Program-made: the position numbers and the translations under genes
In this document: in pieces, positions 33,864 to 52,798 of the stretch
How the letters are laid out: every line of letters begins with the position of its first letter
How positions within the stretch are numbered: the first letter of the stretch is position 1
The notes under the pieces: model-generated
Told to the model about the DNA's origin: nothing
What the model saw: the letters and a program-made list of their open reading frames with translations, nothing else
Databases searched by the model: none
DNA from: Polaromonas sp.
GTDB taxonomy: Bacteria > Pseudomonadota > Gammaproteobacteria > Burkholderiales > Burkholderiaceae_C
Assembly (NCBI GenBank): GCA_038902815.1
Contig: JBCKNF010000003.1
Location: forward strand, 26,809 to 90,808
Reading direction: 5' to 3'
Length of the DNA: 64,000 nucleotides

Positions 33864-35945
33864 TCATGCTCCCAGAAACCTGGCTTGCAGCGTTTGCAAA
33901 GCTGCCTCACTTGATCCGAACAGGTTTTCGCCACCCAACACCCCGGTCAGTCCGGCGCGGTCAAAGGTATCGCGCACCGGCGTCTTCAGGCTGCTGAATG
34001 CCAGGGTGACGTTCGCCTCCCGCAGATACCTGGCAATCTCGCGGATTTTTTCCTCGCCCGAGGCGTCGATACTGTTGATGCCTCTGCCGACCACCAGAAT
34101 GACCTTGGCCTCGGGGTAATCGGCGCGCGCTTGCAGGACCATGTCTTCGAAATGCGCGGCGTTCATGAAATCCACCGAACCGTCGTAGCGCAAGGCCACG
34201 AAGTGGCGGCTGACGGGCGCCACCCGATGCGTCTTGACGTCGCCCAGGCTGCCGTCCGGCAGGCGGCCCAGAATCACCGCGCGCGGCTTGCCCTGGCGCA
34301 GCAAAAGCAGGGCAATGGCCACGACAGCACCGAACAGGATGCCCATGTCCAGGTGCGGGGCAAAAAACAGCGTGGCGACAAAAGTCACGATGGCAGTAAT
34401 GCCGTCATGGCGCTGAGTCTTCCAGGCGTGGTGCATGGCCTTGAAGTTAATCAAGCCGATCACCGCCAGCATGATGACGGCGGCCAGCACGGCTTGCGGC
34501 AGGTGGTAGAGCAGCGGGGTCAGGAACAGCAGGGTGATCAGCACCAGCACGCCAGAAATCACCGAAGACAGCCCGGTGACCGCGCCGGCGCCGATGTTCA
34601 CCGCGGAACGCGAAAACGAACCGCTGACCGGGAACGACTGGCTGAAGCTGGCGGTGATGTTGGACAGCCCCTGTCCGATCAGCTCCTGGTTGGGGTCAAT
34701 GCGTTCGCGGGTTTTTGCGGTCATGGCCTTGGCGATGGCAATCGCCTCCATGAAGGCCACCAGGGAAATCACCAGTGCCGCCGACAGCAAGGCGCGAATG
34801 CTGTCCCAGTCCAGGCGCGGCAGCGCAAATTCCGGCAGACCAGGACGGATGTTTCCGACCACTTCACCGCCGCCCACCAGGTGCACGCCTTTGGCGTCGA
34901 TCTTGTTGATGCGCCAGTGCACGGCCTCGGTGGCGGCCGCGCCGCGCAGCGCAAACAGGGTCTGGCCCTGCGCGTCGGCTGCGGCCACGAACAGGTGACG
35001 GCGCAGCGTCTGGTAGCGGTGCTGGTTTTCCTTTTTTCGGTCTGTCAGCTCCAGCTTGGTGAGATCGAGTCGGTAATCCATTGCAGCAACATTGGCGGTG
35101 TGCTCTTTTTGGTCACTGCGCACCTTTTTCAAAGCCGCGCGCTGTTGCACCAGCGAGTTCTCGAGCTCGCGAATTTCAACTTCCCGGTTCAGGTAGGACT
35201 GGGCTTGCAGACGCACCTCGGGATTGACGATGCGGCTCGCCTCGGCTGTCACTTTGTTCTCGAAGCCCATGTTCCAGCTGAGCAGCGTGGTCGCGGCCAC
35301 CGCAATCAGCATGCCAGGCGCTTTGGGCGCGTAACGCTTGAGCGCCAGCATGGTGGCCAGCGCCCCCAGTCCCATGAACAAGGTGGGCAGGTGCAAGTCC
35401 GCGATCTGTTGCAATACGCCCCAAATGTCGTTCAAGAAATTCTCGCTGCGGCTCATCGACACCCCCAGCAGCTTGTTCAACTGGGACAAGGCGATGATGA
35501 TGGCAGCGGCATTTATGAAGCCGATGATCACCGGGTGCGAGATCAGGTTGATGATGGCGCCCAGGCGAAACACGCCCATGCCAAGCTGGATCAGTCCTAC
35601 CAGCAGGGCCAGCAGGATGGCCAGGGCGATGAACGACTCTGAACCGATCGCCGCCAACGGCGCCAGGGTCGAAGCGGTCAGCAAGGCGACGATGGCCACC
35701 GGGCCGGTGGCGAGCTGGCTGGATGATCCCCATAAAGCGCCCACCATCACCGGCAAGAAGGCCGCGTACAGGCCGTAATACGAGGGCATACCGGCCAATT
35801 GCGCATAGGCCATGGACTGGGGAATCAGCACCAGCGCCACCGTGATCCCAGCGATTAGATCGGCGCGCAGGGTTGACCCGCCCATGGGAAACCAGCGCAG
35901 GAAGGGAAACATGGCGCTGGCCATGGCCATTAGCTTATTGGTCAT
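33864..35945 (-). CDS. SulP/SLC26 anion transporter with coiled-coil insert and STAS domain
   Basis: IPQSMAYA, GLYAAF, SGSFSRS, STAS IDASG. Confidence 0.9.
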   Translation of the reverse strand: MTNKLMAMASAMFPFLRWFPMGGSTLRADLIAGITVALVLIPQSMAYAQLAGMPSYYGLYAAFLPVMVGALWGSSSQLATGPVAIVALLTASTLAPLAAIGSESFIALAILLALLVGLIQLGMGVFRLGAIINLISHPVIIGFINAAAIIIALSQLNKLLGVSMSRSENFLNDIWGVLQQIADLHLPTLFMGLGALATMLALKRYAPKAPGMLIAVAATTLLSWNMGFENKVTAEASRIVNPEVRLQAQSYLNREVEIRELENSLVQQRAALKKVRSDQKEHTANVAAMDYRLDLTKLELTDRKKENQHRYQTLRRHLFVAAADAQGQTLFALRGAAATEAVHWRINKIDAKGVHLVGGGEVVGNIRPGLPEFALPRLDWDSIRALLSAALVISLVAFMEAIAIAKAMTAKTRERIDPNQELIGQGLSNITASFSQSFPVSGSFSRSAVNIGAGAVTGLSSVISGVLVLITLLFLTPLLYHLPQAVLAAVIMLAVIGLINFKAMHHAWKTQRHDGITAIVTFVATLFFAPHLDMGILFGAVVAIALLLLRQGKPRAVILGRLPDGSLGDVKTHRVAPVSRHFVALRYDGSVDFMNAAHFEDMVLQARADYPEAKVILVVGRGINSIDASGEEKIREIARYLREANVTLAFSSLKTPVRDTFDRAGLTGVLGGENLFGSSEAALQTLQARFLGA

Positions 35946-35949
35946 CGTG

Positions 35950-36066
35950 TCAAGCCCATGTAGAGCAGGGGCAGGATCGTAGGCAGTCGCCCACGGTGTA
36001 GCCCGTGATGCCCATGTCTTCCAGATCGGTGAGCAGCGACGATTCGAGCACCGGTTCAAAGCTCAT
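35950..36066 (-). pseudogene. P-II/SbtB-like remnant (38 aa)
   Basis: MSFEPVLESSLLTDLEDMGITGYTVGDC...; ATGA overlap with the upstream SulP stop; too short for the ORF track. Confidence 0.55.
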
Positions 36067-38372
36067 CGTGTTATTCCGTCTTTTGGTTCATCTGGCGGAA
36101 GAAAAATGCCGGGTCGCGCAAGCGCCTCGGCAAAGGAGAGCAGCGACTCTATGGCCTTGGGTGACTCAAGGTCGTGCCCGGGGTAGAAGGCGAGCAGGAC
36201 GTTGTCGCGAATCTCGACATACAAGCCCGGATGTTCGATGAGCCTGCGCTCCCTCCCGGAGTCAACCCAGGCCAGCCCCTGCGCCACATCCTGCGCGTAG
36301 AGGCGGTAGTGCCGGGCGAGCGCCGGGCAGCTCGCCAGATCCACTTCCTGGTACTCGACTAGATAGCGCTCTAAATAAGACCCGGGCGTAAGCGCGAGAT
36401 TGGGCCACTGCACGGAGCCTTCCTCCGGGCGACTCAGCATAACAAGTGTGTGGCGGTGCTCGGCGTAGTAGTCCGGGGCGGCGGTATGGCTGTAATCGAA
36501 CAGCCTGACCTGGCAGCCGCGATAGACGCCGCTCATCGCGTTGCTCTCCTGACGGTTGGTCCCGCGGCGCAGGTACACGAGGTTGTGGCTGTTGAGCGTC
36601 GCCACCGTGGACGGCGCAAACGCGAAGCCGTGACGCCGCGCCACCTCGGCCATCTGTAGTTCGCGCGTCGACAACTGCGCCTTCTCCTTGACCAGCTTCG
36701 CGTCATGCATGCGCGCCGACAACGCGTGGCGGGTGAACTGGTAGAAGTTGTCGAGGCCCTGGATCTCGAACGGACGCCTCGCGTGCAGGCACTCCTCGCG
36801 GAACTGGTGCAGGTATTCCATTGCGGTGTGATCAATGATCCGCCCGGATTCGGTGACGACGAGCGTGATGGCCGCACCCTGCGGGATCGCTTGCAGCAGC
36901 TTGTCGAGCGGCAGCAGATTGAAGCACACGACCGAGCCGAGCGAGATGCGGTAGTGCGGACCTTCCGTGTTCTCCTCCACCTTGACCTTGATCACCGGGT
37001 TGCGGAACAAGCCGCCGAAGTTGTCCCACAGCAGCTTGACCGACTGGGCGAAGGTGAGCCGCCCGGTCAGCACCATGCGCAGCGACGGCGTGAGCAGGTA
37101 CACGAGTAGCGCGATCTCCGCCGCAACGCCGAGCAGGATGCCAACCAGCAGGTCGGTAGCGAGAATCGCCGCGATCGTCACCACGAAGATCAGCATCTGG
37201 TCGCGCCCGATGATGTAGGTCTTGCGGAATACGCTGAACTCGCACAGCCGCCAGCCAACATAGACCAGAATCGAGCCGACGGCCGCCAGCGGGATGCGCG
37301 CGATGATATCCTTGGCCAGGAACAGAAACACGATCAGGAACGTCGCGCTATAGAAGTTGGCCCACAGCGTGCGGCCGCCGGCATCAATGTTGGCGCGGCT
37401 CGGGACGGCGTTGGGAATGATGGTGAGCCCACCGAAGACGGAGGATAGCGTGTTCGACACGCCCATGGCGCGCAGTGTTACGTTCGGATCCGACTTGCGC
37501 TGGTAGGGATCTATTTTGTCCACTGCGGCGATGCTCGCCAGCGACTCAATGCCGTCAATCAGGGTGAGCATGACCACTACCAGAAATATACTCCACCAAA
37601 TCTCGGACCGGTTCCAGGCCGCAGCAAACGCCGGCAACGTGATGCCGCCCTCGATGATGTTGTGCGGCATGGCGATCAGGTGCTGCGGCTCGAGCTGTAA
37701 CAGATAGCCGAGCCCGATGCCGATGCCCGCCACGGTCAGCGGCGGCGGGATGCGCCGCATCCAGGCATGGCGTGTACGGTTGAGATAGAACAGCAGGAAC
37801 AGACAGATGCCGCCAATCACCGCGATCGCCGCATCGGTCTGGAGCAGGACTGCGGGCAGGTTGGCCATGGTCACCAACATGCTCTTCGCGGGCGGCGCAA
37901 GCACACCGAGCAGCGCTGGGAACTGCTTGACGATGATCATGATGCCGATCGCCGCCAGCATTGCCTCGACCACCGTCACCGGCAGGAACAACGCGAAGCG
38001 CCCGGCCTTGAATAGGCTGAGCACGATCTGCACCAGACCGGTGAGGAAAATTGCCACCAGCAGCAGCGGATAGCCCACCGCGAGATCGCCGTCGCCGAGC
38101 AAGATAATGCTGGCGAGCACTGCCGGGGCGAGGCCCGCCGCCGGCCCGCTAATGCTGACGTAGGCGCCGCCTAGGAACGGAAAGATAAGACCAGCGATGA
38201 TCGCCGAGATCAACCCCGCGACCGGCGGCGCGCCAGAGGCGATGGCAATGCCCAGCGAGAATGGCAGATACACCAGCGCCACCTGCAGACCCGCCACCAG
38301 GTCATAGCGCCAGTGCTTTAAGCCTTTGATGCCGTTTTGCGGTTTTTCATGCGGCAATGGTTGCCGTATCAT
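36063..38372 (-). CDS. SulP family transporter (candidate bicarbonate transporter) with extra C-terminal domain
   Basis: LPFSLGIAIASGAPP, SGPAAGL, SRANIDAGGRT, IIDHT; lies in the carboxysome operon. Confidence 0.85.
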   Translation of the reverse strand: MIRQPLPHEKPQNGIKGLKHWRYDLVAGLQVALVYLPFSLGIAIASGAPPVAGLISAIIAGLIFPFLGGAYVSISGPAAGLAPAVLASIILLGDGDLAVGYPLLLVAIFLTGLVQIVLSLFKAGRFALFLPVTVVEAMLAAIGIMIIVKQFPALLGVLAPPAKSMLVTMANLPAVLLQTDAAIAVIGGICLFLLFYLNRTRHAWMRRIPPPLTVAGIGIGLGYLLQLEPQHLIAMPHNIIEGGITLPAFAAAWNRSEIWWSIFLVVVMLTLIDGIESLASIAAVDKIDPYQRKSDPNVTLRAMGVSNTLSSVFGGLTIIPNAVPSRANIDAGGRTLWANFYSATFLIVFLFLAKDIIARIPLAAVGSILVYVGWRLCEFSVFRKTYIIGRDQMLIFVVTIAAILATDLLVGILLGVAAEIALLVYLLTPSLRMVLTGRLTFAQSVKLLWDNFGGLFRNPVIKVKVEENTEGPHYRISLGSVVCFNLLPLDKLLQAIPQGAAITLVVTESGRIIDHTAMEYLHQFREECLHARRPFEIQGLDNFYQFTRHALSARMHDAKLVKEKAQLSTRELQMAEVARRHGFAFAPSTVATLNSHNLVYLRRGTNRQESNAMSGVYRGCQVRLFDYSHTAAPDYYAEHRHTLVMLSRPEEGSVQWPNLALTPGSYLERYLVEYQEVDLASCPALARHYRLYAQDVAQGLAWVDSGRERRLIEHPGLYVEIRDNVLLAFYPGHDLESPKAIESLLSFAEALARPGIFLPPDEPKDGITR

Positions 38373-38391
38373 TTTTTTGAACCCGCCCCGT

Positions 38392-38628
38392 CTAATCAGG
38401 CCAAACCGGAAGCGGGTGTGAGCTGCCAGCAGATGGAACCGTCTTACGTGCCGGACTGGTCTCCACTGGCTTGCTAACCGGGTCAGATGCTTTTGCTGAT
38501 ATTGCCGCTGGCACAGTTCCGGGTAATGTTTGTAATTTCGCCGCCGCGGGCTGTATCGGCTTACCCTGTTGCGATACGACCTGGCGCACACCCTGCGCAA
38601 GTTTTGACCCGATCTTTTTCACCGACAT
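38392..38628 (-). CDS. mcdB: Alpha-carboxysome positioning protein McdB
   Basis: Basic N-terminus, low-complexity middle, C-terminal VWPD; overlaps the mcdA stop. Confidence 0.85.
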   Translation of the reverse strand: MSVKKIGSKLAQGVRQVVSQQGKPIQPAAAKLQTLPGTVPAAISAKASDPVSKPVETSPARKTVPSAGSSHPLPVWPD

Positions 38629-39254
38629 AAAATCTCCTCAATAATCGCTTCAATATCCGCCACAGCCGTTTGGCCGCGTTTGCCCAGTCCGTAGACGCTC
38701 ACGCCTTCCACCGCGGCGCTGCGGTAGGCCGCGCGCCGCTGCATGCTGGCGGTCAGCACCGGCACATCAAATTCCGCCACCGCCTCGCGCATGTCGCGCG
38801 ACAGCGCATTGCGCGATTCCATCTGGTTCAGCACCAGACAGGCACGCAGGTCGGGGTTGTGCTGCCTGGCCTGGTTGACCGCGACCGCCATGTCTACACT
38901 GGCCCACAAGTCGATCGGCGAGGGCAACACGGGGATCAGCGCCAGATGCGCCATGCGCATGATCGCGGTGACCGCGTCACCCTGCGCCCTGGGCGGGCAA
39001 TCCACCACCACATAACGGTGGCTGCGCGCCAGTCGGTTCAGAACGGCCGTCGGATTATCGGCCAGTTGGGCAACAGCCGGCAAACCCGAACTGCCGCCAC
39101 CCATGCCGACCCACTGGGTGATGGAGCGCTGCGGGTCGGCATCCACCAGGTGGGTGGAGCCGCGCCGGGCCAGACCTGCCGCCAGATTCAGCGCCAGGGT
39201 CGTCTTGCCGGTACCGCCCTTCTGGTTGATGACCACGATGATTCTGTCAGCCAT
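38619..39254 (-). CDS. mcdA: ParA-family carboxysome positioning ATPase McdA
   Basis: NQKGGTGKTT, DADPQ, VDCPP; cso operon context. Confidence 0.85.
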   Translation of the reverse strand: MADRIIVVINQKGGTGKTTLALNLAAGLARRGSTHLVDADPQRSITQWVGMGGGSSGLPAVAQLADNPTAVLNRLARSHRYVVVDCPPRAQGDAVTAIMRMAHLALIPVLPSPIDLWASVDMAVAVNQARQHNPDLRACLVLNQMESRNALSRDMREAVAEFDVPVLTASMQRRAAYRSAAVEGVSVYGLGKRGQTAVADIEAIIEEILCR

Positions 39255-39273
39255 GTGCCATCCTGTCCGGCCC

Positions 39274-39552
39274 TTAAGCCTTGCCCACTGCGGCCAGCGC
39301 TTCCATCTCGGAAATAAAGGGAGATTTGCGCTCATTCAGCGCAGCCTGCCCTTCACCATCAATGCTGACGTTGACGTAGGTTTTACCGAAACTCAGGTTC
39401 GGGTAGTAGTCCTCGCGCTTGGACAATTCCGCCAACTGATCCAGGAAGCGCCCCGTCTCGGCATAGCTGCCGAAATCAAAACGCCGGTTCAGCGTGGGCA
39501 GGCGCTCCTGTGGCGCGGAGGGAGCTGCGTTCGGGTCATTGGCATCGCTCAT
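39274..39552 (-). CDS. Pterin-4a-carbinolamine dehydratase-like Rubisco assembly factor (acRAF/Raf2-like)
   Basis: LNRRFDFGSYAET..FLD, YYPNLSFGKTYVNV. Confidence 0.82.
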   Translation of the reverse strand: MSDANDPNAAPSAPQERLPTLNRRFDFGSYAETGRFLDQLAELSKREDYYPNLSFGKTYVNVSIDGEGQAALNERKSPFISEMEALAAVGKA

Positions 39553-39992
39553 GGTGTCGCTCCTTGGTGAATTTCAGTCAGCAACCGATCCAACTCGCGC
39601 AAGTGGCCGAGCTCATCTTGCAGCAGACCGGCGAACAAAGTTTGCGTCTCGCCATCACGCATCCTGGCGCAGTAGTGGGCCGCTTCCTCGTACAAGCGGA
39701 TCGCTTCGATCTCGATCACGCGGTCAATCAGCAGCATCTCCGCTATGCTTCGACCCGTCCGGATCGGCGGCAACTGGGTACCATTGCAGGGAACACCCAA
39801 CACCAGCATGCGTGCTATCAGTTGCTGCGCATGCCCAAGCTCCTCCTCCGCATCGCTGCGGAAGCGGCGACTATGCTCGCCAAGCTGCCACATCGCGGTC
39901 AGACTGGCCTGGGCGAGGTACTGCTGCACTGCGGCCATCTCGTGGCTGAGCGCGCGCAGCAGATAGCCTGTCAGTCGCGGATCGGTCGCCAT
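39549..39992 (-). CDS. Carboxysome-associated bacterioferritin-like protein
   Basis: YLLRALSHEMAAVQQY, EELGH, DELGH. Confidence 0.82.
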   Translation of the reverse strand: MATDPRLTGYLLRALSHEMAAVQQYLAQASLTAMWQLGEHSRRFRSDAEEELGHAQQLIARMLVLGVPCNGTQLPPIRTGRSIAEMLLIDRVIEIEAIRLYEEAAHYCARMRDGETQTLFAGLLQDELGHLRELDRLLTEIHQGATP

Positions 39993-40003
39993 CGCCAGAG
40001 CCC

Positions 40004-40342
40004 TTAGCTTTGTATCTGACTGATTACGCCATCCAGTCCACTGTCACCGTCATCGGGTGTCTTCGGCAAAATGTTTTCCACCTCGGAGTGCACGCGAGCA
40101 ATGATGTGCGCCGCCACCAGGCCGTCGCCGACGCGCTCGCACGCATCCGCTCCGGCACGCACCGCCGCATTCACCGCGCCGGTTTCGCCGCGCACCATCA
40201 CGGTGACGTAGCCGCCGCCGACAAACTGGCGACCCACCAGGCGCACTTCCGCCGCCTTGGTCATCGCGTCTGCCGCTTCAATCGCCGGTACCAGACCACG
40301 CGTCTCGATCATGCCCAATGCCACTCCACTTACGTTTGCCAT
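40004..40342 (-). CDS. csoS1: BMC-H shell hexamer CsoS1 (B-like, C-terminal extension)
   Basis: [36 protein letters not shown]. Confidence 0.96.
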
Positions 40343-40391
40343 TTCAGTACTCCTTCTCTGATTCAGTTAATAAGTTAATAAGCTAAAAGCC

Positions 40392-40688
40392 TTATTCCGC
40401 CAGACCGCTGGGCAAAATATTTTCCACTTCACTGTGCACGCGGGCGATGATGTGCGCCGCCACCAGGCCGTCGCCGACGCGCTCGCACGCATCCGCTCCG
40501 GCACGCACCGCCGCATTCACCGCGCCGGTTTCGCCGCGCACCAGCACGGTAACGTAGCCGCCGCCGACGAACTGGCGGCCCACCAGGCGCACTTCCGCCG
40601 CTTTGGTCATCGCGTCTGCCGCTTCAATCGCCGGTACCAGACCACGTGTCTCGATCATTCCCAATGCCACACCTCTTACGTTTGCCAT
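40392..40688 (-). CDS. csoS1: BMC-H shell hexamer CsoS1 (A/C-like)
   Basis: Same CsoS1 signature, 98 aa, AGGAG RBS. Confidence 0.96.
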   Translation of the reverse strand: MANVRGVALGMIETRGLVPAIEAADAMTKAAEVRLVGRQFVGGGYVTVLVRGETGAVNAAVRAGADACERVGDGLVAAHIIARVHSEVENILPSGLAE

Positions 40689-40734
40689 TTTCAGTACTCC
40701 TTTTAGGTTAAAAAACTCTGCGTTAAAAAACTTG

Positions 40735-41001
40735 CTACTTATCCGCCTGGCCGTCGCCGGCATCCCATCCATCAATAATTCCGGCGATGGTCAGGTCGGT
40801 CAATATCCGGTAATCCCCTGCCGCGTAACGGGCTGCTGAACCGCTCACGGCAATCACCCATTTGCCCGGCGGCACGCCCACCGGGTCGCAGGCCACACTG
40901 AGCTTGCCTTTGGCGTCGGCGAGCACCCTGAGCGATGAATTTTTCAGCCCAGGTATACGCTGCGTGGCCACCAGATCAGACACAACACACATGATCTCCA
41001 T
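40735..41001 (-). CDS. csoS4B: Shell vertex pentamer CsoS4B
   Basis: MEIM...VACDPVG..GKWV..SGSAAR..TDLTIAGIID. Confidence 0.93.
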   Translation of the reverse strand: MEIMCVVSDLVATQRIPGLKNSSLRVLADAKGKLSVACDPVGVPPGKWVIAVSGSAARYAAGDYRILTDLTIAGIIDGWDAGDGQADK

Positions 41002-41011
41002 CAAGGACGTC

Positions 41012-41260
41012 CTAATCTTCCGACCAGTGGTCGATGATGCCGACAATGGTGGCATCGGACGGGAAGTCCTTGCTGCCCGCGGCTTCCCGCGCCGCCGAGC
41101 TGCCCACCACGATCACCCAGTCGCCGGGGATGCAGCCCACCGCGTCAATCGCGATGCTCTGCGCACCGTTTTTTTCCTTCACCACCAGCAGCGGGCGATG
41201 ACCCATTTCCTTGATCCGATTGGTCGAAACCAGGGTTTTTTGCACCTGACAAATCTTCAT
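41012..41260 (-). CDS. csoS4A: Shell vertex pentamer CsoS4A
   Basis: LVSTNRI, DAVGCIPGDWV, GSSAAREAAG. Confidence 0.94.
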   Translation of the reverse strand: MKICQVQKTLVSTNRIKEMGHRPLLVVKEKNGAQSIAIDAVGCIPGDWVIVVGSSAAREAAGSKDFPSDATIVGIIDHWSED

Positions 41261-42879
41261 CTCTTGCCCCTAAACTGTTGATGTTCTCCATTCGCCTCGA
41301 TCGCCTCGATCGATTCGATCGGGCTGCCCGGGCACTTGTCCTGCACGGTCATGCCGCACACCAGCAGACCCTTTTGTGCCAGCTCCGGGTAACGTGACTC
41401 GATCGCCGCCTTGACCCGTTGACAACGCTCCACAGTGCGTTCACGACTGCCCGGTACCCGGTTGTCGTAGCGAAAGTGAATCGCCACCGGCACCGGCAGC
41501 CCATGCACCACGTTGAGCTTGCTGAAAATCTTGATGCCCACGTCCATATCCGGCGCGCCTTCTTCCACCGTGTAAAGGTGGGCGAAATAGGCCAGGTTGC
41601 GCAACTGGAATTCTTCGAAGCCGTCGCCGACGCTGATGAAACGCTCGTTGTGGCCGATGTCCGGGTAACGCCCGCCCCAGTTGCCGCACACATACTCAAT
41701 CTGCGACAGGTTGTTGATCAACAACGTGGCGACGAGCCGGCGCATACCTTCGTGCGGCTCACCCTGGCCCGCGCCCCAGCCGGTGGCGGCGCTGGCGATC
41801 TGAATCGCCTGGTACACCTTGAGCCGCGCACTGCTGGCGTCATCATTGACGCTGTGCCGATACAGCTCCAGGTTGTCCACCGCGCGGTACGGGCTCATTT
41901 CTCCATCGGCATCGGGTACGTGTACTTTGATGGCGTCGGTGTCGGTATCGACCCCGATCAACAGGGTGTCCACCGAGGCGCCACAGCAAAAGCTGTTTTC
42001 GATCGCCTGACGGAATTCTCGCAAGCGTTGCAGCGCACTCTCCGCCGCCTGGCGTTCGTTGCTGGCGTGGGCGGCGCAGCCCTCGTGGGTCGGGTCGGAA
42101 CTGCTCCAGTGGTACACCACGATCTTGAGGTAACGCGTGCCCGCGTCGGCTGTCACCGGACGGCCTTCGCGATAGCGCATCAGTTCGGTCTCGATCCAGC
42201 GCTTGACATTGGCTTCCACGTCGAACATGGCACCGGCATAGGCCTTGCGGCTGCGCACCGCCGCATCGGGCAGGCGCAGGATGTAGCGCACCAAACCCTT
42301 CAAACGCCCGTCCGAACACGGTGTGATGTCCACCGCGTGGTAGCCGCAATCGAGGAAGAACGCCACCGCCTGGTCGACGCCTTGTTGGGGGCTGGCCGCG
42401 CGCGCCTGCTCGGCCATCAGGCGCAACGCACGCATCACGCACTCGCCGTACAGCGCGCGCATGTCCAGATCAGCCACCCAGGCATCCGCCAGTATCTGCG
42501 CGGGCAACTCGAAGCCGAGCTGTTCGAGCGCCAGCGCCTGGGCACGTTCGATAAAATCGGACTCATGCTGCTGGCCGGCAATCCGCTTGAGCAGCGGAAC
42601 GATGGCATCGAAGCGCCCCTTCACGGTCTGCTCGTGTGCCAGCAGGCGCCGGTTCTCCGACTCGTTGGTGAGCGGGTGCCGGCAAGGTCGTCCGGTGTCG
42701 GTTGAGCAGGCCGGATTGGGGGCCACCTCCGGGGCGAGAGCGATGCCTTGCGGCGCAAATACCGGTTGCGGGTGGCGACCCTGCAGAACACCGTGAGGCG
42801 TACCCAGTCCATACGGCGGTCGGCGCGCTCCAGACAGCGGGCTGGTGCTACGCCCGGGATGGTTTCTCGTATTCATCAC
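41257..42879 (-). CDS. csoSCA: Carboxysomal beta-carbonic anhydrase CsoSCA
   Basis: PCSDGRL and HWSSSDPTHEGCAAH Zn ligands intact; GVDTDTDAIKVH. Confidence 0.95.
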   Translation of the reverse strand: MMNTRNHPGRSTSPLSGARRPPYGLGTPHGVLQGRHPQPVFAPQGIALAPEVAPNPACSTDTGRPCRHPLTNESENRRLLAHEQTVKGRFDAIVPLLKRIAGQQHESDFIERAQALALEQLGFELPAQILADAWVADLDMRALYGECVMRALRLMAEQARAASPQQGVDQAVAFFLDCGYHAVDITPCSDGRLKGLVRYILRLPDAAVRSRKAYAGAMFDVEANVKRWIETELMRYREGRPVTADAGTRYLKIVVYHWSSSDPTHEGCAAHASNERQAAESALQRLREFRQAIENSFCCGASVDTLLIGVDTDTDAIKVHVPDADGEMSPYRAVDNLELYRHSVNDDASSARLKVYQAIQIASAATGWGAGQGEPHEGMRRLVATLLINNLSQIEYVCGNWGGRYPDIGHNERFISVGDGFEEFQLRNLAYFAHLYTVEEGAPDMDVGIKIFSKLNVVHGLPVPVAIHFRYDNRVPGSRERTVERCQRVKAAIESRYPELAQKGLLVCGMTVQDKCPGSPIESIEAIEANGEHQQFRGKR

Positions 42880-42925
42880 TATCGCTTGTCCATTAATGAT
42901 CGCTCAATCGCTTGCCAGCTTGGCG

Positions 42926-45427
42926 CTAGCCGCGCGCGCCGCCGGAATAGGTGATGGCCGAGCCTTTGGCAGCGTTGCCGCTGCTGCCGGTGATCTTGCT
43001 GACAGGGATTTCAGGGCGCGCGCGCTCCTTGTTCTGCGCAGCGCCTATCACGACACCGCGCGGGTCACCGCGCAAAGTCGGGTTACGCCGCGTGAAGGGG
43101 CCCTCAGTACCGGTCACGCTTTCATTGCGCCGCCATGCTGCTCCGGTGATCGCAAAACCACCTTCGCGCCCGTCGCCAGTGAGGCGGCTGCGCGGCTCTT
43201 CAGGCGCTTGCACCTGCCCCATGACCAGCGGCGCTACACTTCGCGCGTCGTCCTTGTAGCGAAACTCAGGCGTGCCGGACACCAGGCCTGCGGCCAGGTT
43301 GACCGGGCCGGTGATGCGTCCGATGGCGCCGGAGGCCGTGCCGGTGATGCGGTTTAAGCTGTTGTCCTGAGCGCTGCGCGCCGGCGTGGCGATGCTGAAA
43401 TCGCCCTGGACACGCGCCGCCGGCGGCACTTCCGCAGGCTGGCGTGGCGCATCAAACGGGGCGCGCGCCAGCGGATGCGGGTTACTGTTCATGCCACGCT
43501 GCGACACACGCTGACCGGGGCCAGCGTAGGGCGTGCCGCTCAACACCAGAGCCGCGCCGCGTTCCGCGCCAGTCACTTTACCGCCGGATGCAACGCGTGT
43601 GCCGCTAGGCACCGCGCCGACCTTGGCCGGTGACGCTAGCGGCTGCGTGCCGCACAGTTCTTGTTGCAGCTCCGCGCCGATGTACTCGGTGCCGGTAATG
43701 CCGTGACACGCGCCATACTCGTCACCGGTAAGTTTGGCGGAACCGCCCACCAGTGTTCCGGTGACCTTGCGCCCATGCGTGGTGCGCGATACATTTACTT
43801 TGGCCGGGCCGGGTGATTGTTCAGCCGCGCACGGCACATCCGCCGTAGCCGGATTGAGATATTCATTGCCAGTGACGTGTTTGCAGGAACCCGCCTCGTC
43901 ACCTGTCACCTTGGAACTGGTGCCAACCTGGGTGCCAGTCACGGCCTTGTTCTTCACCGTGCGCGTCACGCCGACCTTGGCCGGTGGGATAGAGGGGTCG
44001 CTGGCGCATAACGCCGTGTACTGGTCGGGGCCGATATATTCGGTGCCGGTGATTTTCTTGCAACTGCCCGCTTCGTTGCCGGTGACCTTGGCGTTGCGTT
44101 CGACACTGTTGCCGGTAACAATCTGGCCGCCGGTGGTTGCCGTCTCTGCCACTTTGGGCGGTGCCTCGCACTGACCAAACTCGCAACGCCCGTTCACTAC
44201 CTTGGGCGGCTCGCGCCACGCCTCACGCCGTGGCTCGGGCTGTGCTAAGCGCGCAGCGGGTGCACCCTTGGTGCGTTTCTGCCAGCGCGATGCGGTCTGC
44301 GCGGGCGGCAGGCCACGAGGCATACCGCCGAAACCAGCGTCCGATAACGAACTGTTGTGCTGGGCCGATTCATTAACTGTCATGTCTGTCTGCATAGTAG
44401 GGTTGTCCTGTATTGCATGATGTGGTTCGCTGGCCGGCGCGCGGACAACCGGGTGATCAATTTGCCGCACGCTCTCGGAAGTTTTTTTTTCAGCCTCCGG
44501 CTCCTCTTTGATCTCATGCGGTAGGCTCTCCCGCTTGATCTCCCGGAATATCCGGCTGGCCAGCACGTCCTCCGCCTCGATGGTCATCAGCTCCTCGCGG
44601 GTCAGCGTACCGCCCCTGGCGTACAGGCGATTGGCTTGGCGCAGACGCGCACGATCCAGCGCGTTGCGGATGCTTCTGGCGTTGGCGAATTGCGGCATCT
44701 TCGTGCGCTTCTGGATGTAGTCGTAAAACGCCTGCTCCGCCTCTTCGCTAAAGCGGTATTGCTGTTGTTGCAGCATCAGCTGCGTGATCTGCGCTAATTC
44801 ATCCACCGCGAAATCCGGAAAATCCAAATGGTGCGCGACGCGCGAGGACATGCCCGGATTGCTCTTGAAGAACGTAGCCATGCGATCACCGTAACCGGCC
44901 AGAATGACCACCAGGTCGTCGCGATTGTTCTCCATCACCTGCAGCAGAATCTCGATCGACTCCTGACCGTAATCACGCTCGTTTTCCGGGCGATACAGGT
45001 AATACGCTTCGTCTATGAACAGCACACCGCCCATGGCGCGCTTCAATACCTCTTTGGTCTTGGGCGCGGTATGGCCGATGTACTGGCCGACCAGGTCGTC
45101 ACGCGTCACCGATACCACTTCCGGGCGGCGGATGTAGCCTAGGCGATGCAGGATCTCCGCCATGCGCAGTGCGACTGTGGTCTTGCCGGTGCCGGGGTTG
45201 CCGGTGAACGACATGTGCAGACTGGGTGGCCCGGAGCTGAGGCCCATGCCCTTGCGCAGCTTGTCCACCAGCAGCAAAGCGGCGATTTCGCGGATGCGCG
45301 TCTTGACCGGCTTCAAGCCCACCAACTCGCGGTCGAGCTGGTCCAGCACTTCATCAACGTGGCAGTCTTCACAGCTCTCTGCCGCGTTGCTCTGCGCGCC
45401 GCCTGTATTCATCTGTGTAGTCGCCAT
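42926..45427 (-). CDS. CbbX (red-type Rubisco activase)-CsoS2 fusion protein, 833 aa
   Basis: aa ~25-295 CbbX ([38 protein letters not shown]); C-terminal half has CsoS2 (V/I/L)TG repeats, TGxEY, and terminal ITYSGGARG. Confidence 0.9.
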
Positions 45428-45478
45428 GCTATGTCTCGTTTACCCGTATCGGTGAAATAATCCCCTGCCTGCTGCTTT

Positions 45479-45898
45479 CTAGCTGTAGCGCTCCCCCTCG
45501 GGGTTATCAGTGGCGTAGGAAGCCACGGTGTAGCGGATGCTGCGGCCCCCCACCTCCTGCCGCACCAGCCGATAGCCCGGCTCGTAGGAAGGCCGGTTGA
45601 CGATAAACGACATCGTCATGCTTTCGGTGCCGCGCGTGGAATCAAAGGCGTTGACCTTGATGTAGTGCTGGGGAAAAGCCTTGCGGCAGGCGCTGACCTC
45701 GTACAGGACGGCGGCGGGATCCTTGACGTCAAACATCGGCATATCCCACATCTCCCAGTAGGTGTTGCGCGGGTGCGGATCGTCGGTGTATTCCACGCTC
45801 AGCGCCCAGCCTTTATTCAGGGCATATTGCATCTGCGCCTTGATCTGCTCGTCGCTCAGCTCGGGCAGAAATGAAAACATACCTTGTGTCACTTTCAT
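45479..45898 (-). CDS. cbbS: Rubisco small subunit, red type
   Basis: MKVTQGMFSFLP, DDPHPRNTYWEMW, C-terminal beta-hairpin extension. Confidence 0.96.
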   Translation of the reverse strand: MKVTQGMFSFLPELSDEQIKAQMQYALNKGWALSVEYTDDPHPRNTYWEMWDMPMFDVKDPAAVLYEVSACRKAFPQHYIKVNAFDSTRGTESMTMSFIVNRPSYEPGYRLVRQEVGGRSIRYTVASYATDNPEGERYS

Positions 45899-45931
45899 GT
45901 CAGTTTCTCCTTAGTTCTCAATGCGTGTTGA

Positions 45932-47419
<1,488 letters not shown>

Positions 47420-47469: not shown

Positions 47470-47545
47470 GATTGTTAAGTTAAAAAAAAAATTTTAAAAG
47501 TAAAATGTTTGTATGATAATGTTTTACTAAAATAAACCTATGAAG
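47470..47545. promoter_or_regulatory. AT-rich divergent cbbL/cbbR control region, putative CbbR sites
   Basis: AGTAAAA...TTTTACT inverted repeat, TAAtgttttacTAA, T-N11-A boxes. Confidence 0.6.
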
Positions 47546-47553
47546 GAGTTGCC

Positions 47554-48462
47554 ATGCAACTGCGCCATGCCACCCTGCATCAGTTACGGATTTTCTCGGC
47601 CGTCGCCCGCCACGGCAGCTTCGCCCGCGCCGCAGAAGCGCTTCACCTGTCTCCCCCCACGCTGTCGCTGCAGGTCAAGCAACTTTCGGAAACCGTCGGC
47701 CAGCCGCTGTTCGAGCAGTTGGGAAAGAAGATCTATCTGACCGCAGCCGGGCAGACGCTGGCCGCGGCTTGCCAGGACATCGAAAGCCGCATGGAACGGC
47801 TGTCACAGGACCTGGCGGCCCTGCAAGGCGTGGAGCGCGGTAGCCTGAAGATCGCCATCCTGACCACGGTGAAGTACACCGTGCCCAAGCTGCTGGGCGG
47901 GTTTTGCGCGGCCCATCCCGGCATCGAGGTGGCGATGTTCGTGGGCAATCGCGAAAACCTGCTTACGCGCCTGGTCAGCAACCAGGACGACCTCTACATC
48001 ATGGGGCAACCGCCGGAGCAGATGAATGTGGTTTGCGAGAACTTCGCCGACAATCCGCTGGTGCTGGTGGCCCCGCCCGAGCACCCGCTGGTCGGCCAAC
48101 GCAACATCCCGGCGACCCGGCTGCGTGATGAGCCCTTCATCCTGCGTGAACCGGGCTCGGGCACGCGACTGACGGCCGAGAGGTTTTTTGCAAGCCAGGG
48201 CATGACGCTGAAAACCCGGCTTGAAGTGGGCAGCAACGAAGCCATCAAGCAGACCGTGGCCGGCGGTTTGGGCCTGGCGGTACTGTCGGCGACCACGGTG
48301 GTGTCGGAACTGGCGCTCAAGGAACTTGTACTACTGGATGTACAGGGTTTCCCGCTGATCCGGCGCTGGTATGTGGTCTATCCCACCGGCAAGCGGCTAT
48401 CGGCCGCAGCCACCGCCTTCAAGGCCTGGCTGTTCGAGTACAGGCCATCTGTTGTGCGCTGA
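47554..48462 (+). CDS. cbbR: Second CbbR-type LysR regulator
   Basis: TLHQL HTH, REPGSGTR, SNEAIKQ; divergent from cbbL. Confidence 0.88.
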   Translation: MQLRHATLHQLRIFSAVARHGSFARAAEALHLSPPTLSLQVKQLSETVGQPLFEQLGKKIYLTAAGQTLAAACQDIESRMERLSQDLAALQGVERGSLKIAILTTVKYTVPKLLGGFCAAHPGIEVAMFVGNRENLLTRLVSNQDDLYIMGQPPEQMNVVCENFADNPLVLVAPPEHPLVGQRNIPATRLRDEPFILREPGSGTRLTAERFFASQGMTLKTRLEVGSNEAIKQTVAGGLGLAVLSATTVVSELALKELVLLDVQGFPLIRRWYVVYPTGKRLSAAATAFKAWLFEYRPSVVR

Positions 48463-48488: not shown

Positions 48489-50225
48489 TTAGGCAGAAGC
48501 GTATCCCTGGTTGGGTAACACACCTTTCAACTCAGGGTTGTTAAGCTTTCTTGGCGTAACCTTGCCGCCTCGAGCTTTGAGCCATTCCTCAACGACGTCC
48601 CAGACCTGCTTGTTACCCTGGTTTCTGGCTTCTTCGGCGACAGGAGCCCAGCCGGCAACCCGGTATTTCTTGGTCGCTTCAATGGGCCTGCCGTTCAAGC
48701 GCATGTTGTCAATGCGCTTGCCCATCGATGCCAGTGGCGAACAACTGTATTGCAGGCCGCCGACGCGCACCATGTCGCCACCCTGCTGGTAGTAGGGGTC
48801 GGGATTGAACAGGTTGTCGGCCACGTCTTCAAGAACGAGCTTGATGGTTTCGCCGGTCATTTCGCTCACGGTGGCGTAGGAGTAGGTGGTGGCCGTCATG
48901 TCCATCAGCCATTCGCGCGTGATGGCCTGGCCTGAAAGCAGCGACGTACCCCAGCGGAAACCGGGCGAGAAAGCGATTTCGGCGCCCTGTACATCCATCA
49001 GCGCATCGAGAATGAGCTGGTCGCCGGTGCCGTTGAAGTTGCCGAGGCGGTACAGCGTGCCCTCGGTCACAGCCAGCTTTTCAGCCAGCTTGGCTTCATA
49101 CGGCCCGCGAACCTTGTTGATCAATGCATCCATCTCTTTGTCTGCCGGCAACATATTGGCGAAAATGGGTAGCAATTTATAGCGAAAGTCGGCCACCTTC
49201 TTGTCCTTGACTTCAAAGTCAAGGACAGCCAGGAACTTGCCATTCGAGCCGGCGTTGGTCACTATGGTCTTGCCGCCTTTGTTGCTGACCAACGTGGCCA
49301 CCGGCATGCTGTCGTGCGTGTGGCCGCCCATGATGGCGTCGATGCCGGTCACGCGGCTGGCCATCTTCAGGTCCACGTCCATGCCGTTGTGGCTCAGCAG
49401 GACCACGACCTGGGCGCCCTTGGCGCGCGCCTCGTCCACCGTCTTCTGCATGCTCTCTTCCTGGATGCCAAAGGCCCAGTCAGCCACCATGTAGCGCGGG
49501 TTGGCAATCGGCGTGTATGGGAAAGCCTGACCGATGATGGCGCAAGGCACGCCGTTGATCTCACGCATCACATAAGGCTTGAACACCGGGTCGCCGAAGT
49601 CCGTGGTCTTGATGTTTTGCGCGATGAATTCGATCTTGCCGGCAAAGTCTTTTTCGATGATTTCCTTCACGCGCGCCATGCCCAAGGTGAAGTCCCAGTG
49701 TCCGGTCATGAGGTCCACGCCCAGCAGCTTGCAGACGTCCACCATGTCCTGGCCCTTGGTCCACAGCGCCGTGCCCGAGCCCTGCCAGGTGTCGCCGCCG
49801 TCGAGTAGCAGCGCGCCGGGGCGGCTGGCCTTCATGCGCTTGACGAGGGTAGCCAAATGCGCAAAGCCACCGACCTTGCCGTAGCGCCTGGCGGCTTTTT
49901 CGAAGTCAAGGTAGGTCAGCGCGTGAGCCTGCGCCGTACCGGGTCGCACCTTGGCCACCTTGAGCAAATGCTCGCCCACCAGGTGGGGCAATTTGCCTTT
50001 CATTGATCCCACTCCGATCTTGACGCTGGGCTCGCGGAAGTAAATCGGCTTGAGCTGGGCGTGGCAATCGGTCATGTGCAGAAAGGACACATTGCCGAAC
50101 TTCGGGATGTCGTACAGACCGTTAGCCGCCGTGGCGGCATCGGCGTCGGCATAAGCCCCCAAGCCCATGCCAGCCATGGTGCCGGCACCCAGCACCTCGA
50201 AAAATTCGCGTTTTGTTAAATTCAT
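48489..50225 (-). CDS. soxB: Thiosulfohydrolase SoxB
   Basis: TDCHAQL, DGGDTWQG, SHNG, GGHTHD, PGFRWG. Confidence 0.95.
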   Translation of the reverse strand: MNLTKREFFEVLGAGTMAGMGLGAYADADAATAANGLYDIPKFGNVSFLHMTDCHAQLKPIYFREPSVKIGVGSMKGKLPHLVGEHLLKVAKVRPGTAQAHALTYLDFEKAARRYGKVGGFAHLATLVKRMKASRPGALLLDGGDTWQGSGTALWTKGQDMVDVCKLLGVDLMTGHWDFTLGMARVKEIIEKDFAGKIEFIAQNIKTTDFGDPVFKPYVMREINGVPCAIIGQAFPYTPIANPRYMVADWAFGIQEESMQKTVDEARAKGAQVVVLLSHNGMDVDLKMASRVTGIDAIMGGHTHDSMPVATLVSNKGGKTIVTNAGSNGKFLAVLDFEVKDKKVADFRYKLLPIFANMLPADKEMDALINKVRGPYEAKLAEKLAVTEGTLYRLGNFNGTGDQLILDALMDVQGAEIAFSPGFRWGTSLLSGQAITREWLMDMTATTYSYATVSEMTGETIKLVLEDVADNLFNPDPYYQQGGDMVRVGGLQYSCSPLASMGKRIDNMRLNGRPIEATKKYRVAGWAPVAEEARNQGNKQVWDVVEEWLKARGGKVTPRKLNNPELKGVLPNQGYASA

Positions 50226-50306
50226 GAATTCGCAACTACTTAATTAGCGGAAATAAAAAGACCCGGACAAGTGCCGGGTCCGGACGGGGCTTACTGGCTT
50301 ACTGGC

Positions 50307-50954
50307 TTACTGGTTGACCGGAGATTTCGGATCCAGCAGCAGCGCCATGAGGTGTGCTATCTGGGTCTCGTTCAGGATGCCCGCATGGCCGCCGCGCGGC
50401 ATGCTGGAGCAGGCGTTGTAGGCCTTGGCGTTCCAGAGCTTACCCCAGGTGTATTCGACAATCGCCTTGGAAGCCGGGCTGGCCGGATCCGTCACGCCGC
50501 GCAGCTTGCCGTAGTTGTACAGGCTCGGGCCGAGGGTGCCGAAGGAAATTTCTTTTTTGTCGATCCCGTGGCAGTTGTAGCAGTTGCCGCCATTGGCCGA
50601 GCCCGCCGCATCGGTCCAGGTCATGCCGCGCCCGCTCTGCGCGATTATCTCGCCCTGTTTCCAGTCACCCAGAAACTTGCCATCGGCGGGCCATTTGATG
50701 GTTTTTAGGTTGGCGGCTTCTATGCTTTTGGCCAATTTTTCATCAATCGGTTTACCGGCCACATTGGCAGCACTGCATTCGCGATTGGTATCGTCCTGCA
50801 CCAGCCGAGCGACCTTGGCTTGACCCTGGTCGCGGAACGAGGATTTGAGAATGTCGGCGGTGCGCTTGTCCAGCTCCGGGCCGGACGGCAGGGCGGCACA
50901 ACCGGCCAGCACAAGCGCCAGCAGGGGTGCGAGGTATTTGATGGTTTTTTTCAT
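50307..50954 (-). CDS. soxX: Cytochrome c SoxX
   Basis: Lipoprotein LAGC, GGNCYNCH, GPSL, SSMP. Confidence 0.93.
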   Translation of the reverse strand: MKKTIKYLAPLLALVLAGCAALPSGPELDKRTADILKSSFRDQGQAKVARLVQDDTNRECSAANVAGKPIDEKLAKSIEAANLKTIKWPADGKFLGDWKQGEIIAQSGRGMTWTDAAGSANGGNCYNCHGIDKKEISFGTLGPSLYNYGKLRGVTDPASPASKAIVEYTWGKLWNAKAYNACSSMPRGGHAGILNETQIAHLMALLLDPKSPVNQ

Positions 50955-50967
50955 GCTGCTGTGTTCC

Positions 50968-51753
50968 TTAACGCTTGAGAGCCGGGGTAATGGATACAGC
51001 GCCTTTGCCAGTCACGCCCATGTAGGAGGTCAAGGCAATGGTGGCGTCGCTGACCAAGATGGGGAATGGAAAGCGCATCTGGCGGAAGCAGTCATTTATG
51101 CGAGTCTGCATGGTCCACATTTGACCAGGGGTATGGCGGTACGCCGGCCAGCCGGCGGCAGCGGCAGCGGCACCGGCGTTTGTCGTCAGATTCGGCAAGT
51201 CTTGCAGGCGGATGCGCTTGCCGTCCACTTCGTGACACGAAGCACAGGAAAAATCATGCGTGCCAGCGCGGGTAAAAAACACCCGCTTGCCCACTTCATA
51301 CATGATTTTCTCTTCACTATGGTCTTGCGGCACGTTGAATTTCATGCCTTTTGACTGGCCGGAGACCCAGGCGGCCAACGCGATCACGTTGTTCCGCTCA
51401 CTCTTGGCAATCTCGGCGGCGCTGAAGCCCTGCTGGGTTTCCATGCAGGTATGCAGGCGCGACTCCAGGTCTTGCACCCGTTTGGTATCGGCAAAGTAGC
51501 GCGGAAGTTCGACAAATACACCCTTGGCTACACCGGGGCCTTTGCCCAGGTCGCATTTTTGCAGCGTTTGCTTTTGCGGGCCGCGCGCTTGCTTCCACAA
51601 GTCTTCGCCCTTGGCTTCGAACAATTCGGCCGGGTTGCCGTCGGCCAGCATGGCTTGGTATTCTGCGGTTGCTTCCGCCGCTGTTTTTTGCGCCAGTGCG
51701 ACAGTGCTCAAGCAAGTCAGGGTCAAGATTAAAAGAATCTTTTTAGTGGTCAT
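50968..51753 (-). CDS. soxA: Cytochrome c SoxA (monoheme type)
   Basis: NPAEL, FSCASCH, WPAYR, DCFRQMR. Confidence 0.93.
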   Translation of the reverse strand: MTTKKILLILTLTCLSTVALAQKTAAEATAEYQAMLADGNPAELFEAKGEDLWKQARGPQKQTLQKCDLGKGPGVAKGVFVELPRYFADTKRVQDLESRLHTCMETQQGFSAAEIAKSERNNVIALAAWVSGQSKGMKFNVPQDHSEEKIMYEVGKRVFFTRAGTHDFSCASCHEVDGKRIRLQDLPNLTTNAGAAAAAAGWPAYRHTPGQMWTMQTRINDCFRQMRFPFPILVSDATIALTSYMGVTGKGAVSITPALKR

Positions 51754-51774
51754 AGTGCCTCCTCGTAGTGTTCG

Positions 51775-52086: not shown

Positions 52087-52136
52087 TTTTAGCTCCTAAA
52101 TCTGAATTAAAAATATGTCTGTAGCGGGATGGACTA

Positions 52137-52592: not shown

Positions 52593-52605
52593 GCGATTTC
52601 TCCTG

Positions 52606-52792: not shown

Positions 52793-52798
52793 AATCAA

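Follow-up and report, generated by a model that had tools for sequence, protein, structure and literature searches.

Reviews through 2026 define carboxysomes by their cargo, alpha-carboxysomes by form IA Rubisco and beta-carboxysomes by form IB (PMC9164163, PMC12918739). In the proteobacterial alpha-carboxysome, known from Halothiobacillus neapolitanus and from form IA loci of the family of L006, a locus of a Gallionellaceae metagenome-assembled genome (MAG), the genes run cbbL-cbbS-csoS2-csoSCA-csoS4A-csoS4B-csoS1-csoS1-bfr-acRAF-parA. Red-type Rubisco is encoded in cbbL-cbbS-cbbX operons, as in Rhodobacter sphaeroides (3syk, 3zuh) and in Betaproteobacteria with form IC enzymes. Here we describe a locus that joins the two, found in a 64,000-nucleotide stretch (the window) of the Polaromonas sp. 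assembly GCA_038902815.1 (contig JBCKNF010000003.1, positions 26,809 to 90,808). In this window, the gene for the Rubisco activase CbbX is fused in frame to that for the carboxysome scaffold CsoS2. Judging from gene content and motifs, the operon probably builds a carboxysome around red Rubisco with a fused activase-scaffold, an arrangement so far undescribed.

The locus shares with form IA loci the M and C regions of CsoS2, a CsoSCA at 77-80% and DNA that matches at 71-73% over 38579-43579. Unlike them, it encodes a red, apparently form IC Rubisco, has the Rubisco-binding peptides of the CsoS2 N-terminus (N-peptides) seemingly replaced and has CbbX fused; no CbbQ or csoS1D-type gene was found. 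With red operons it shares the cbbLSX order, a CbbX about 75% identical with all motifs, the C-terminal tail of the large subunit and the extension of the small subunit. Ordinary CbbX ends within about 30 residues of an SRVF motif (80 loci), whereas the window's CbbX continues into the scaffold and shell genes come next.

DnaX is an AAA+ clamp loader. In Thermus thermophilus, transcriptional slippage on a T9 run lets dnaX yield tau and gamma at 1:1 (PMC5009743); this gene shares with the fusion a single open reading frame (ORF), an N-terminal ATPase, a nine-base run and nearby stops in both other frames, and differs in its unrelated function and in that slippage is known there and predicted here. 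A scaffold gene with a long and a short product is also known, the CsoS2A/CsoS2B frameshift of H. neapolitanus (PMC5009743, PMC12918739), in which a -1 shift in the M region drops the C-region, whereas the shift proposed here would drop the whole scaffold. The diatom pyrenoid, likened here by description only, condenses red form ID Rubisco with a disordered, motif-bearing linker, PYCO1 (PMC13159521); it is eukaryotic and has neither a bacterial microcompartment (BMC) shell nor a fused activase.

Results

CbbX is fused in frame to CsoS2 in independent sources

The operon lies on contig C3 of the window's genome (G000, 69% complete). A first-pass annotation, made from the sequence alone, had read the gene as an 833-aa in-frame CbbX-CsoS2 ORF with Walker and pore-loop motifs, M repeats and an ITYSGGARG end, and translation and profile scans confirmed each of these. 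TIGR02880 matched CbbX residues 15-294 at equivalog level (511.8 bits, cut-off 459.25), and the solved CbbX 3syk aligned with residues 20-295 (E 1e-123). Walker A (GNPGTGKT) lies at residues 76-83, YIG at 116-118 and FIDE at 137-140. A linker of about residues 296-422 leads into the CsoS2 part (residues 423-833), which matched PF12288 CsoS2_M with 226 bits and has full M repeats at 423, 482 and 541, a short one at 600 and the conserved CsoS2 C-terminus. Predicted folds were uninformative both for the fusion (pLDDT 38, and below 50 throughout beyond residue 299, as expected of a disordered tail) and for cbbL modelled without an alignment (pLDDT 35).

The fusion is real and conserved. A protein search, among the 120 matches listed, found the AAA and CsoS2_M domains together in at least 22 other 90%-identity clusters from three sources, and cluster look-ups for 20 proteins added further members. 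The resulting full-length set comprised 45 proteins of 833-1137 aa, the window's included; the four catalytic motifs checked, among them the Walker motifs and the pore-loop Tyr, are intact in all 45, and 43 end in GGARG/A. A second genome with the fusion in frame (G1226) belongs to a 12-genome order distinct from the window's. Its contig carries sulP, red cbbL, cbbS and the fusion before it ends, and red cbbL-cbbS directly precede the fusion in both genomes for which DNA was at hand. In addition, contigs of other studies span the passages from cbbS to cbbX, from cbbX to the linker and from the CsoS2 tail to csoSCA. One of them (run X6, record 25) spans CbbX and the linker with a gap of 30 letters, divisible by three, and another, independent contig (record 27 of that run) connects red cbbS with window-type cbbX. 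The homopolymer error that had been feared to split the ORF did not materialize, as the T9 run (the plus strand of the A9 run discussed below) had no indel listed in run X4 (depth 166) or X9.

A side feature of several sequences (L133:9140-9180, P0013, P0014, P0015, P0017, P0020, P0139 and P0142) is an in-frame (S)VAGGR[TM]PGAT-like insert at varied positions, which resembles a small mobile repeat landing in disordered regions.

The operon pairs red-type Rubisco with alpha-carboxysome shell genes

The window operon follows the alpha-carboxysome gene order (Table 1), and csoS1 hexamer and csoS4 pentamer genes share the locus with Rubisco, as in alpha-carboxysome loci. CsoSCA scored 758 bits against TIGR02701 and has the C-x-D-x-R, H...C and H-x-E motifs of the active site. 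The Rubisco, in contrast to the form IA cargo of alpha-carboxysomes, is of the red type. The best PDB matches of its large subunit are red enzymes at 836-943 bits, including 1bwv and 5mz2, which PMC9833100 classes as red; the form IA entries 6uew and 7smk reached 594 bits. The top structural match is the recent entry 25hn. Identity is 71-89% to 61 cbbX-linked large subunits and 57% to form IA, and the protein has 488 aa against 470-474 in the form IA controls, with an extended C-terminal tail that is encoded upstream of CbbX. From its nesting among proteobacterial cbbX-linked enzymes, we infer form IC rather than form ID. Form IA Tyr72, which both CsoS2 and CsoSCA need (PMC10614612, PMC7714395), aligns with Leu83 of the window's cbbL; the residue is Leu or Met in the two fusion-linked cbbL.

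G000 yielded no cbbL, cbbX or csoS2 besides the copies in the window. Neither it nor G1226 gave a form IA cbbL, and both cbbL matches of G1226 are red. CbbQ/O was considered as the activase and dropped, as G000 gave no CbbQ_C match. As csoS2 controls we used 11 ordinary loci (nine with cbbL in view, two without) and four from a metagenome scan; cbbL was form IA-like in all 13 in which it was in view (9 + 4). In a FastTree phylogeny of 65 rows, the two fusion-linked cbbL group as a separate clade (SH-like support 100), and they share rare residues adjoining the CsoS2 site of form IA, namely Ala81 and no acidic residue at 82. Residue 52 of the small subunit is Asp in both fusion loci and Gly in 49/49 ordinary red cbbS.

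Table 1 Features of the fusion operon and its neighbours in the window
Feature	Position	Strand	Basis
LysR regulator (CbbR-like), divergent from the operon	47554..48462	+	Pfam LysR_substrate and HTH_1
cbbL, red-type (putatively form IC) large subunit, 488 aa, long C-terminal tail	45932..47398	-	PDB matches, identity
cbbS, red-type small subunit, 139 aa, C-terminal extension, Asp52	45479..45898	-	domain scan, alignment
cbbX-csoS2 fusion	42926..45427	-	833-aa ORF
CbbX AAA+ module, residues 15-294, catalytic motifs intact	44546..45385	-	profile and motif scan
A9 run, codons Glu313-Lys-Lys-Thr316, candidate slippage site	44482..44490	-	conserved DNA
AGGA and, 10 nt later, ATG (Met345 of Met-Gln-Thr), candidate internal start, 489-aa CsoS2-only product	44393..44409	-	sequence
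Linker motif GFGGMPR ([FY]G-x1-2-P[RH] family), candidate red-Rubisco sticker	44315..44335	-	motif family
12-residue linker motif, one copy, candidate red-Rubisco sticker or metal/disulfide site	44165..44200	-	43/43 linkers
CsoS2 M repeats, three full and the start of the short fourth	43610..44161	-	domain scan
CsoS2 C-region, shell-binding by homology	42929..43402	-	90% identity to ordinary CsoS2, last 150 aa
csoSCA carbonic anhydrase, active-site motifs present	41257..42879	-	TIGR02701; 77-80% to form IA-locus copies
csoS4A vertex protein	41012..41260	-	TIGR02703 above cut-off
csoS4B vertex protein	40735..41010	-	TIGR02704 above cut-off
csoS1 shell hexamer	40392..40688	-	NF053791 above cut-off
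csoS1 shell hexamer, second copy	40004..40342	-	NF053791 above cut-off
Bacterioferritin-like carboxysome-locus protein	39549..39992	-	PF00210; same position in control loci
Pterin-dehydratase-like (acRAF-like) protein	39274..39552	-	PF01329 weak, below cut-off; 41-61% to positional counterpart in controls
ParA/McdA-like positioning ATPase	38619..39254	-	NF041546 above cut-off
Small McdB-like ORF	38392..38628	-	positional label, no family match; 39% to counterpart in three control loci
Two SulP-family transporters, candidate bicarbonate supply	33864..38600	-	domain scan

DNA similar to that of the LysR regulator stands upstream of form IA control loci, and a 67% relative of the window's upstream SulP gene adjoins the second fusion locus. 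Between 27939 and 33855 (minus strand), genes named by eye from their translations encode transketolase, phosphoribulokinase, FBPase and a HAD protein (CbbY-like); a second LysR gene lies at 32869-33855. Directly after the operon's LysR gene, a sox-like cluster at 48489-55097 (SoxB, X, A, Z, Y, cytochrome c and SoxC-like ORFs, also by eye) suggests a sulfur-oxidising autotroph. An A10 run is located at 47482-47491 (G000 C3:74290), in the intergenic region between cbbL and the divergent LysR gene.

The linker lacks form IA N-peptides and carries its own motifs

The 47 fusion sequences of the linker set contain 43 distinct linkers. Using a pattern of our own for the N-peptide (R..RR..GK helices), set on ordinary CsoS2 proteins, we found it in 0/43 fusion linkers, against 15/15 (2-5 copies each) and 56/56 ordinary CsoS2. 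The Rubisco-binding repeats that mark the CsoS2 N-terminus in alpha-carboxysomes are thus missing from the fusion, and on this point the first-pass annotation is supported. The linker is more than the low-complexity stretch that it had been taken for, as new motifs occupy the place where N-peptides would stand. G-x-C-[ED]-F-G occurs in one to three copies in all 43 distinct fusion linkers, one copy being retained in the window, and in 0/15 ordinary CsoS2; [FY]G-x1-2-P[RH] occurs in 42/45 fusions and 0/56 ordinary CsoS2. Searched against 1.84 billion representatives, the linker matched only itself and P0142.

Three clusters hold CsoS2 with the new motifs and without CbbX, which is fused in the other 23 of 26 motif-bearing clusters. 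Among the unfused proteins, P0141 (represented by two NCBI proteins, on contigs of up to 18 kb) and P0144 begin exactly at the Met-Gln-Thr found within the fusion linkers; P0141 is named from a Verrucomicrobiota MAG. The CsoSCA of one red-clade locus, L165, carries YGVPR in its N-terminus, resembling the FGVPR of linkers, and [FY]G-x1-2-P[RH] is absent from the window's CsoSCA and 15 others. This is a hint only, since form IA CsoS2 and CsoSCA use one Rubisco site with different motifs (PMC10614612). Because the N-peptides are gone, the motifs stand in their place and unfused motif-bearing CsoS2 exist, the linker is likely a new N-region that replaces the form IA one, with the motifs as stickers.

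The first-pass annotation had instead let CbbX substitute as the Rubisco-recruiting module while also placing the activase in the shell. The placement holds to the extent that CbbX tethered to a shell-binding tail would arrive there; the substitution finds no support, the linker having motifs of its own. Still, the CbbX ring could itself recruit Rubisco through the C-terminal tail of the large subunit, leaving the linker motifs to bind metal, form disulfides or contact the shell. That CbbX is fused in 23 of the 26 motif-bearing clusters, that pore loop and Walker motifs are intact in 45/45 and that the window keeps a single GxCEFG would fit this account, and the two cysteines of the motif lie closer to the Cys-rich M repeats than to an Arg-rich helix. 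We nevertheless consider it unlikely: P0141 and P0144 have the motifs and start at Met-Gln-Thr unfused, the motifs repeat one to three times exactly in the N-peptide position, and a related motif stands in the CsoSCA N-terminus of L165. Moreover, action on inhibited enzyme and the need for ATP and RuBP fit repair better than stable packing (PMC9833100).

Two variations concern the linker and the tail behind it. In P0006-P0009, P0011 and P0121-P0126, tandem (I/L)RNE-like units stand between the CbbX end and a conserved Lys-Lys, giving a spacer of 39-55 residues with the frame kept. P0021, P0022, P0023 and P0140 have a CsoS2 tail whose last 150 aa are only 42-50% identical to all other tails and keep the same CbbX, junction motif and GxCEFG repeats despite it.

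Red Rubisco as the probable cargo of the shell

Several observations weigh against a carboxysome filled with red Rubisco. Ordinary red enzymes lack Tyr72 as well, and neither a csoS1D-type third BMC gene nor DabA was found in G000. The shared Rubisco substitutions come from two sequences; cbbL and the fusion lie on one contig at two loci only, and the whole operon does so only in the window. Both genomes are incomplete MAGs (69% for G000), and a form IA gene may sit elsewhere. Finally, CsoSCA in the window belongs to the ordinary form IA type even at its N-terminus and may not be recruited to the red enzyme.

Accordingly, red Rubisco might remain outside the shell, with the fusion an inherited read-through whose working products are short CbbX and CsoS2-only protein, and with a shell that is empty, holds unassembled form IA enzyme or is decaying. 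Besides the incompleteness of the genomes, Rubisco-less alpha-carboxysome loci exist (L155, L156; PMC9164163), the window gene, compared with its relatives of 960-1137 aa, has lost motifs and M repeats, and the slip site and internal start described below could each bypass the fusion. Against this stand a junction stretch, from A9 to Met345, that is open in 43 distinct linkers, the inability of form IA enzyme to bind in the known way without N-peptides, the intact shell and carbonic anhydrase genes and a linked Rubisco that forms its own clade. We regard the read-through account as improbable, and red Rubisco inside the shell is the reading that we retain.

A conserved A9 run and an internal Met suggest several products from one gene

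The only in-frame slippery heptamer found in the window fusion is the A run directly after CbbX. A -1 shift there would stop at 44457-44459 and give 323 aa, and a +1 shift would give 348 aa; the corresponding products in G1226 would have 314 and 355 aa. Runs of A9 occur in only 3/918 long ORFs of G000. Nineteen bases including the run are identical in the window and G1226, which belong to two different orders; the flanks are unalignable, and the codon is the same at only 123 of the 206 residues that the two CbbX share. Among the strains of run X4, 17 sites vary within 44447-44529 and none within the 15 bases 44478-44492; run X9, at low depth, agrees that A9 is invariant, and runs X6 and X7 gave no coverage of the site in this comparison. 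At the protein level, Glu-Lys-Lys followed by Thr, Ile or Ser stands at the junction in 40/43 linkers and Ala-Lys-Lys-Thr in one, 11 to 55 residues after the CbbX end, and the residue that follows can have a codon starting with A in all 41 linkers that keep Lys-Lys. A slip-prone conserved run with nearby out-of-frame stops was thus present in the two genomes for which there is DNA and in contigs of two runs, which cover few lineages.

Runs of nine A or T allow efficient polymerase slippage in vivo, and A_AAA_AAA is a weak ribosomal shift site in Escherichia coli (PMC5009743). We therefore lean towards transcriptional slippage on A9, rather than a ribosomal shift, as a predicted source of free CbbX. 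Downstream of the run, the Met of Met-Gln-Thr is kept in 41/43 linkers, and the 30-odd codons between A9 and Met345 have kept an open, unshifted frame across 43 distinct linkers in spite of numerous indels.

Other findings temper this proposal of a slip site and an internal start. The Lys-Lys pair is broken in 2/43 linkers (EEKT, EKNF). Lys-Lys followed by Thr or Ile is common elsewhere too, as in the M repeats, and protein-level selection could therefore explain part of the junction motif. No shared RNA structure was found downstream of A9, which makes a structure-stimulated -1 ribosomal shift less likely than slippage. As for the internal start, the position of Met345 holds Val in P0002 and P0004, and its ribosome-binding score of -4.0 kcal/mol equals that of the annotated start and is exceeded by two internal Mets.

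Conceivably, only the full-length fusion matters; the A9 run would then be a neutral remnant of the former cbbX end, and the internal Met one of the former csoS2 start. An AGGA ahead of Met-Gln-Thr is what such an ancestral start should have left behind, and the two linkers without Lys-Lys and the missing stimulator structure are in keeping with this. However, two orders share an identical A9 block amid unalignable flanks, its 15 bases bear no substitution among strains that vary at 17 nearby sites, and so slippery a run should vanish if the long product alone mattered. We thus find the leftover explanation very improbable and prefer a functional slip site.

Mosaic tails point to repeated transfer of a red module

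The window's DNA falls into two parts. Positions 44583-47381 and 43615-44216 match the G1226 red locus at 77% and 70%, and the stretch that matches form IA loci ends at 43579, placing a red-to-IA junction near 43580-43615. The last 150 residues of the window fusion are 90% identical to ordinary CsoS2 P0029 and 42-57% identical to the four other tails compared from the red clade. In a tree of 106 C-regions (leaving out P0152, a fragment from a fusion cluster), at least three changes of the red-linker label are required, and the red module was found on at least three unrelated CsoS2 tails; it therefore moves as a unit. Fused CbbX domains group together except for two actinobacterial CbbX inside the clade on a long branch, which we read as long-branch attraction. 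Most simply, the red module would have arisen once and later been grafted several times onto shell operons already in place, through recombination in the csoS2 repeats. An assembly chimera or homopolymer miscall, for which the MAG origin, the A9 at the junction and the mosaic near 43,600 might speak, has virtually no chance against 22 other clusters from three sources, a second genome, junction-spanning contigs of other studies and relatives (P0002, P0004) with the same mosaic tail, and we dropped it as refuted by these independent copies. A misbinned contig was dropped as well: C3 has a GC content of 56-63% except for one end block at 47%, and cbb and sox genes flank the locus.

In G1226, csoSCA and the shell genes lie on a separate short contig. 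Its CsoSCA is closest to that of L165 (60%, against at most 50% for others among 17 CsoSCA compared), and in L165 a main-clade fusion tail is followed by csoSCA-csoS4A-4B-csoS1x2-bfr-acRAF-parA; the two G1226 contigs probably belong to one locus. G1226 has two red Rubisco operons, an ordinary cbbLSX (C115, L008) and the fusion-linked one (C480, L133), which would allow a division of labour between high and low CO2.

The fusion is rare. Of the 204 genomes of its genus, only the window's has a CsoS2 above the cut-off, and no fusion was found in 60 relatives or in the 203 other genomes of the genus. None was found either among the CsoS2 matches listed in 317, 201, 103, 12 and 50 further genomes; the matches listed exclude 164 in the set of 201 genomes and, in the set of 50, 20 of 70 remaining loci. 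The fusion motif pattern gave 0 matches in metagenome contigs and 0/400 in genomes of the window's order, and among the 12 genomes of G1226's order it matched only G1226. A second metagenome scan gave seven loci, one of them of the red clade, as a tail only. The profile scan of genome contigs that led to G1226 matched CbbX motifs and gave 80 ordinary cbbX loci, used as controls; carboxysome genes stood beside ordinary cbbX in 0/80 within the stretch fetched, and an Atlas search returned only ordinary CbbX clusters.

Two alpha-carboxysome operons, L155 (G675:C3:51000-64000) and L156 (G1020:C2:146000-159000), have no cbbL or cbbS upstream. The N-region of their CsoS2 is short, with one or two N-peptide matches, and csoS2 is preceded by a LysR gene, a PII-like ORF and a DabA-looking ORF of about 1000 aa (label by eye); the CsoS2 tails of both have their best scores with the main red clade.

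Discussion

The first-pass annotation of the fusion was right in part; it overlooked the red-type Rubisco next door and the conserved, probably programmed slip site. With these included, a sequence of steps can be proposed. The M and C regions of the fusion would, very probably, bind CsoS1 and CsoS4 as those of ordinary CsoS2 do. The cargo would probably be the red L8S8 enzyme. GxCEFG, FG-x-PR and an Arg-rich stretch would, more likely than not, act as stickers for it, and the fused CbbX would stay an active activase, be carried into the shell and repair the enzyme there, its rings bundling several tails and so raising valency. Ring-derived valency would matter most in the window, where only one GxCEFG is left. 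Slippage on A9 would then, with slightly better than even prospects, make free CbbX of 323 or 348 aa from the same gene, and this short form may join mixed rings, where it thins out the tails, or act on cytosolic enzyme. A CsoS2-only scaffold made from an internal start at Met345 is possible but somewhat doubtful.

Bacterial CbbX needs ATP and RuBP for ring formation and acts on inhibited enzyme (PMC9833100); this raises the bolder possibility that a Calvin-cycle substrate switches on scaffold valency and assembly. Most tentatively, carboxysomes would hold a third type of Rubisco: a mobile red module of cbbL-cbbS-cbbX and stickers may have captured shell operons repeatedly through csoS2, one gene giving activase, scaffold and activase-scaffold with RuBP-switched assembly; we consider this whole less likely than not.

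A literature search found no CbbX-CsoS2 fusion and no red-Rubisco carboxysome; subscription journals and supplements were outside it, and the locus tables of PMC8217296 and PMC9164163 may hold unremarked cases. One paper on a seemingly carboxysomal form IC enzyme was dropped, as the enzyme in it was tested without a shell. CbbX near alpha-carboxysome loci is not new, since CbbX is thought to serve alpha-cyanobacterial carboxysomes, whose cargo is still form IA (PMC12918739). The locus thus appears to be a carboxysome variant that is alpha-like in gene content, departs from alpha-carboxysomes in cargo and N-peptides and is undescribed as far as we searched.

If this proposal is true, a natural shell for red Rubisco breaks the cargo rule of the carboxysome classes. 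Red enzymes, which include the most CO2-specific Rubiscos, are sought for crop engineering (PMC9833100), and the locus would be a ready-made 12-gene route to the encapsulation of one, with a new Rubisco-binding motif available for mapping. The entry of activase and ATP into the carboxysome, not yet modelled according to PMC12918739, would become testable. The mosaic tails, in turn, point to a change of carboxysome cargo in one recombination step.

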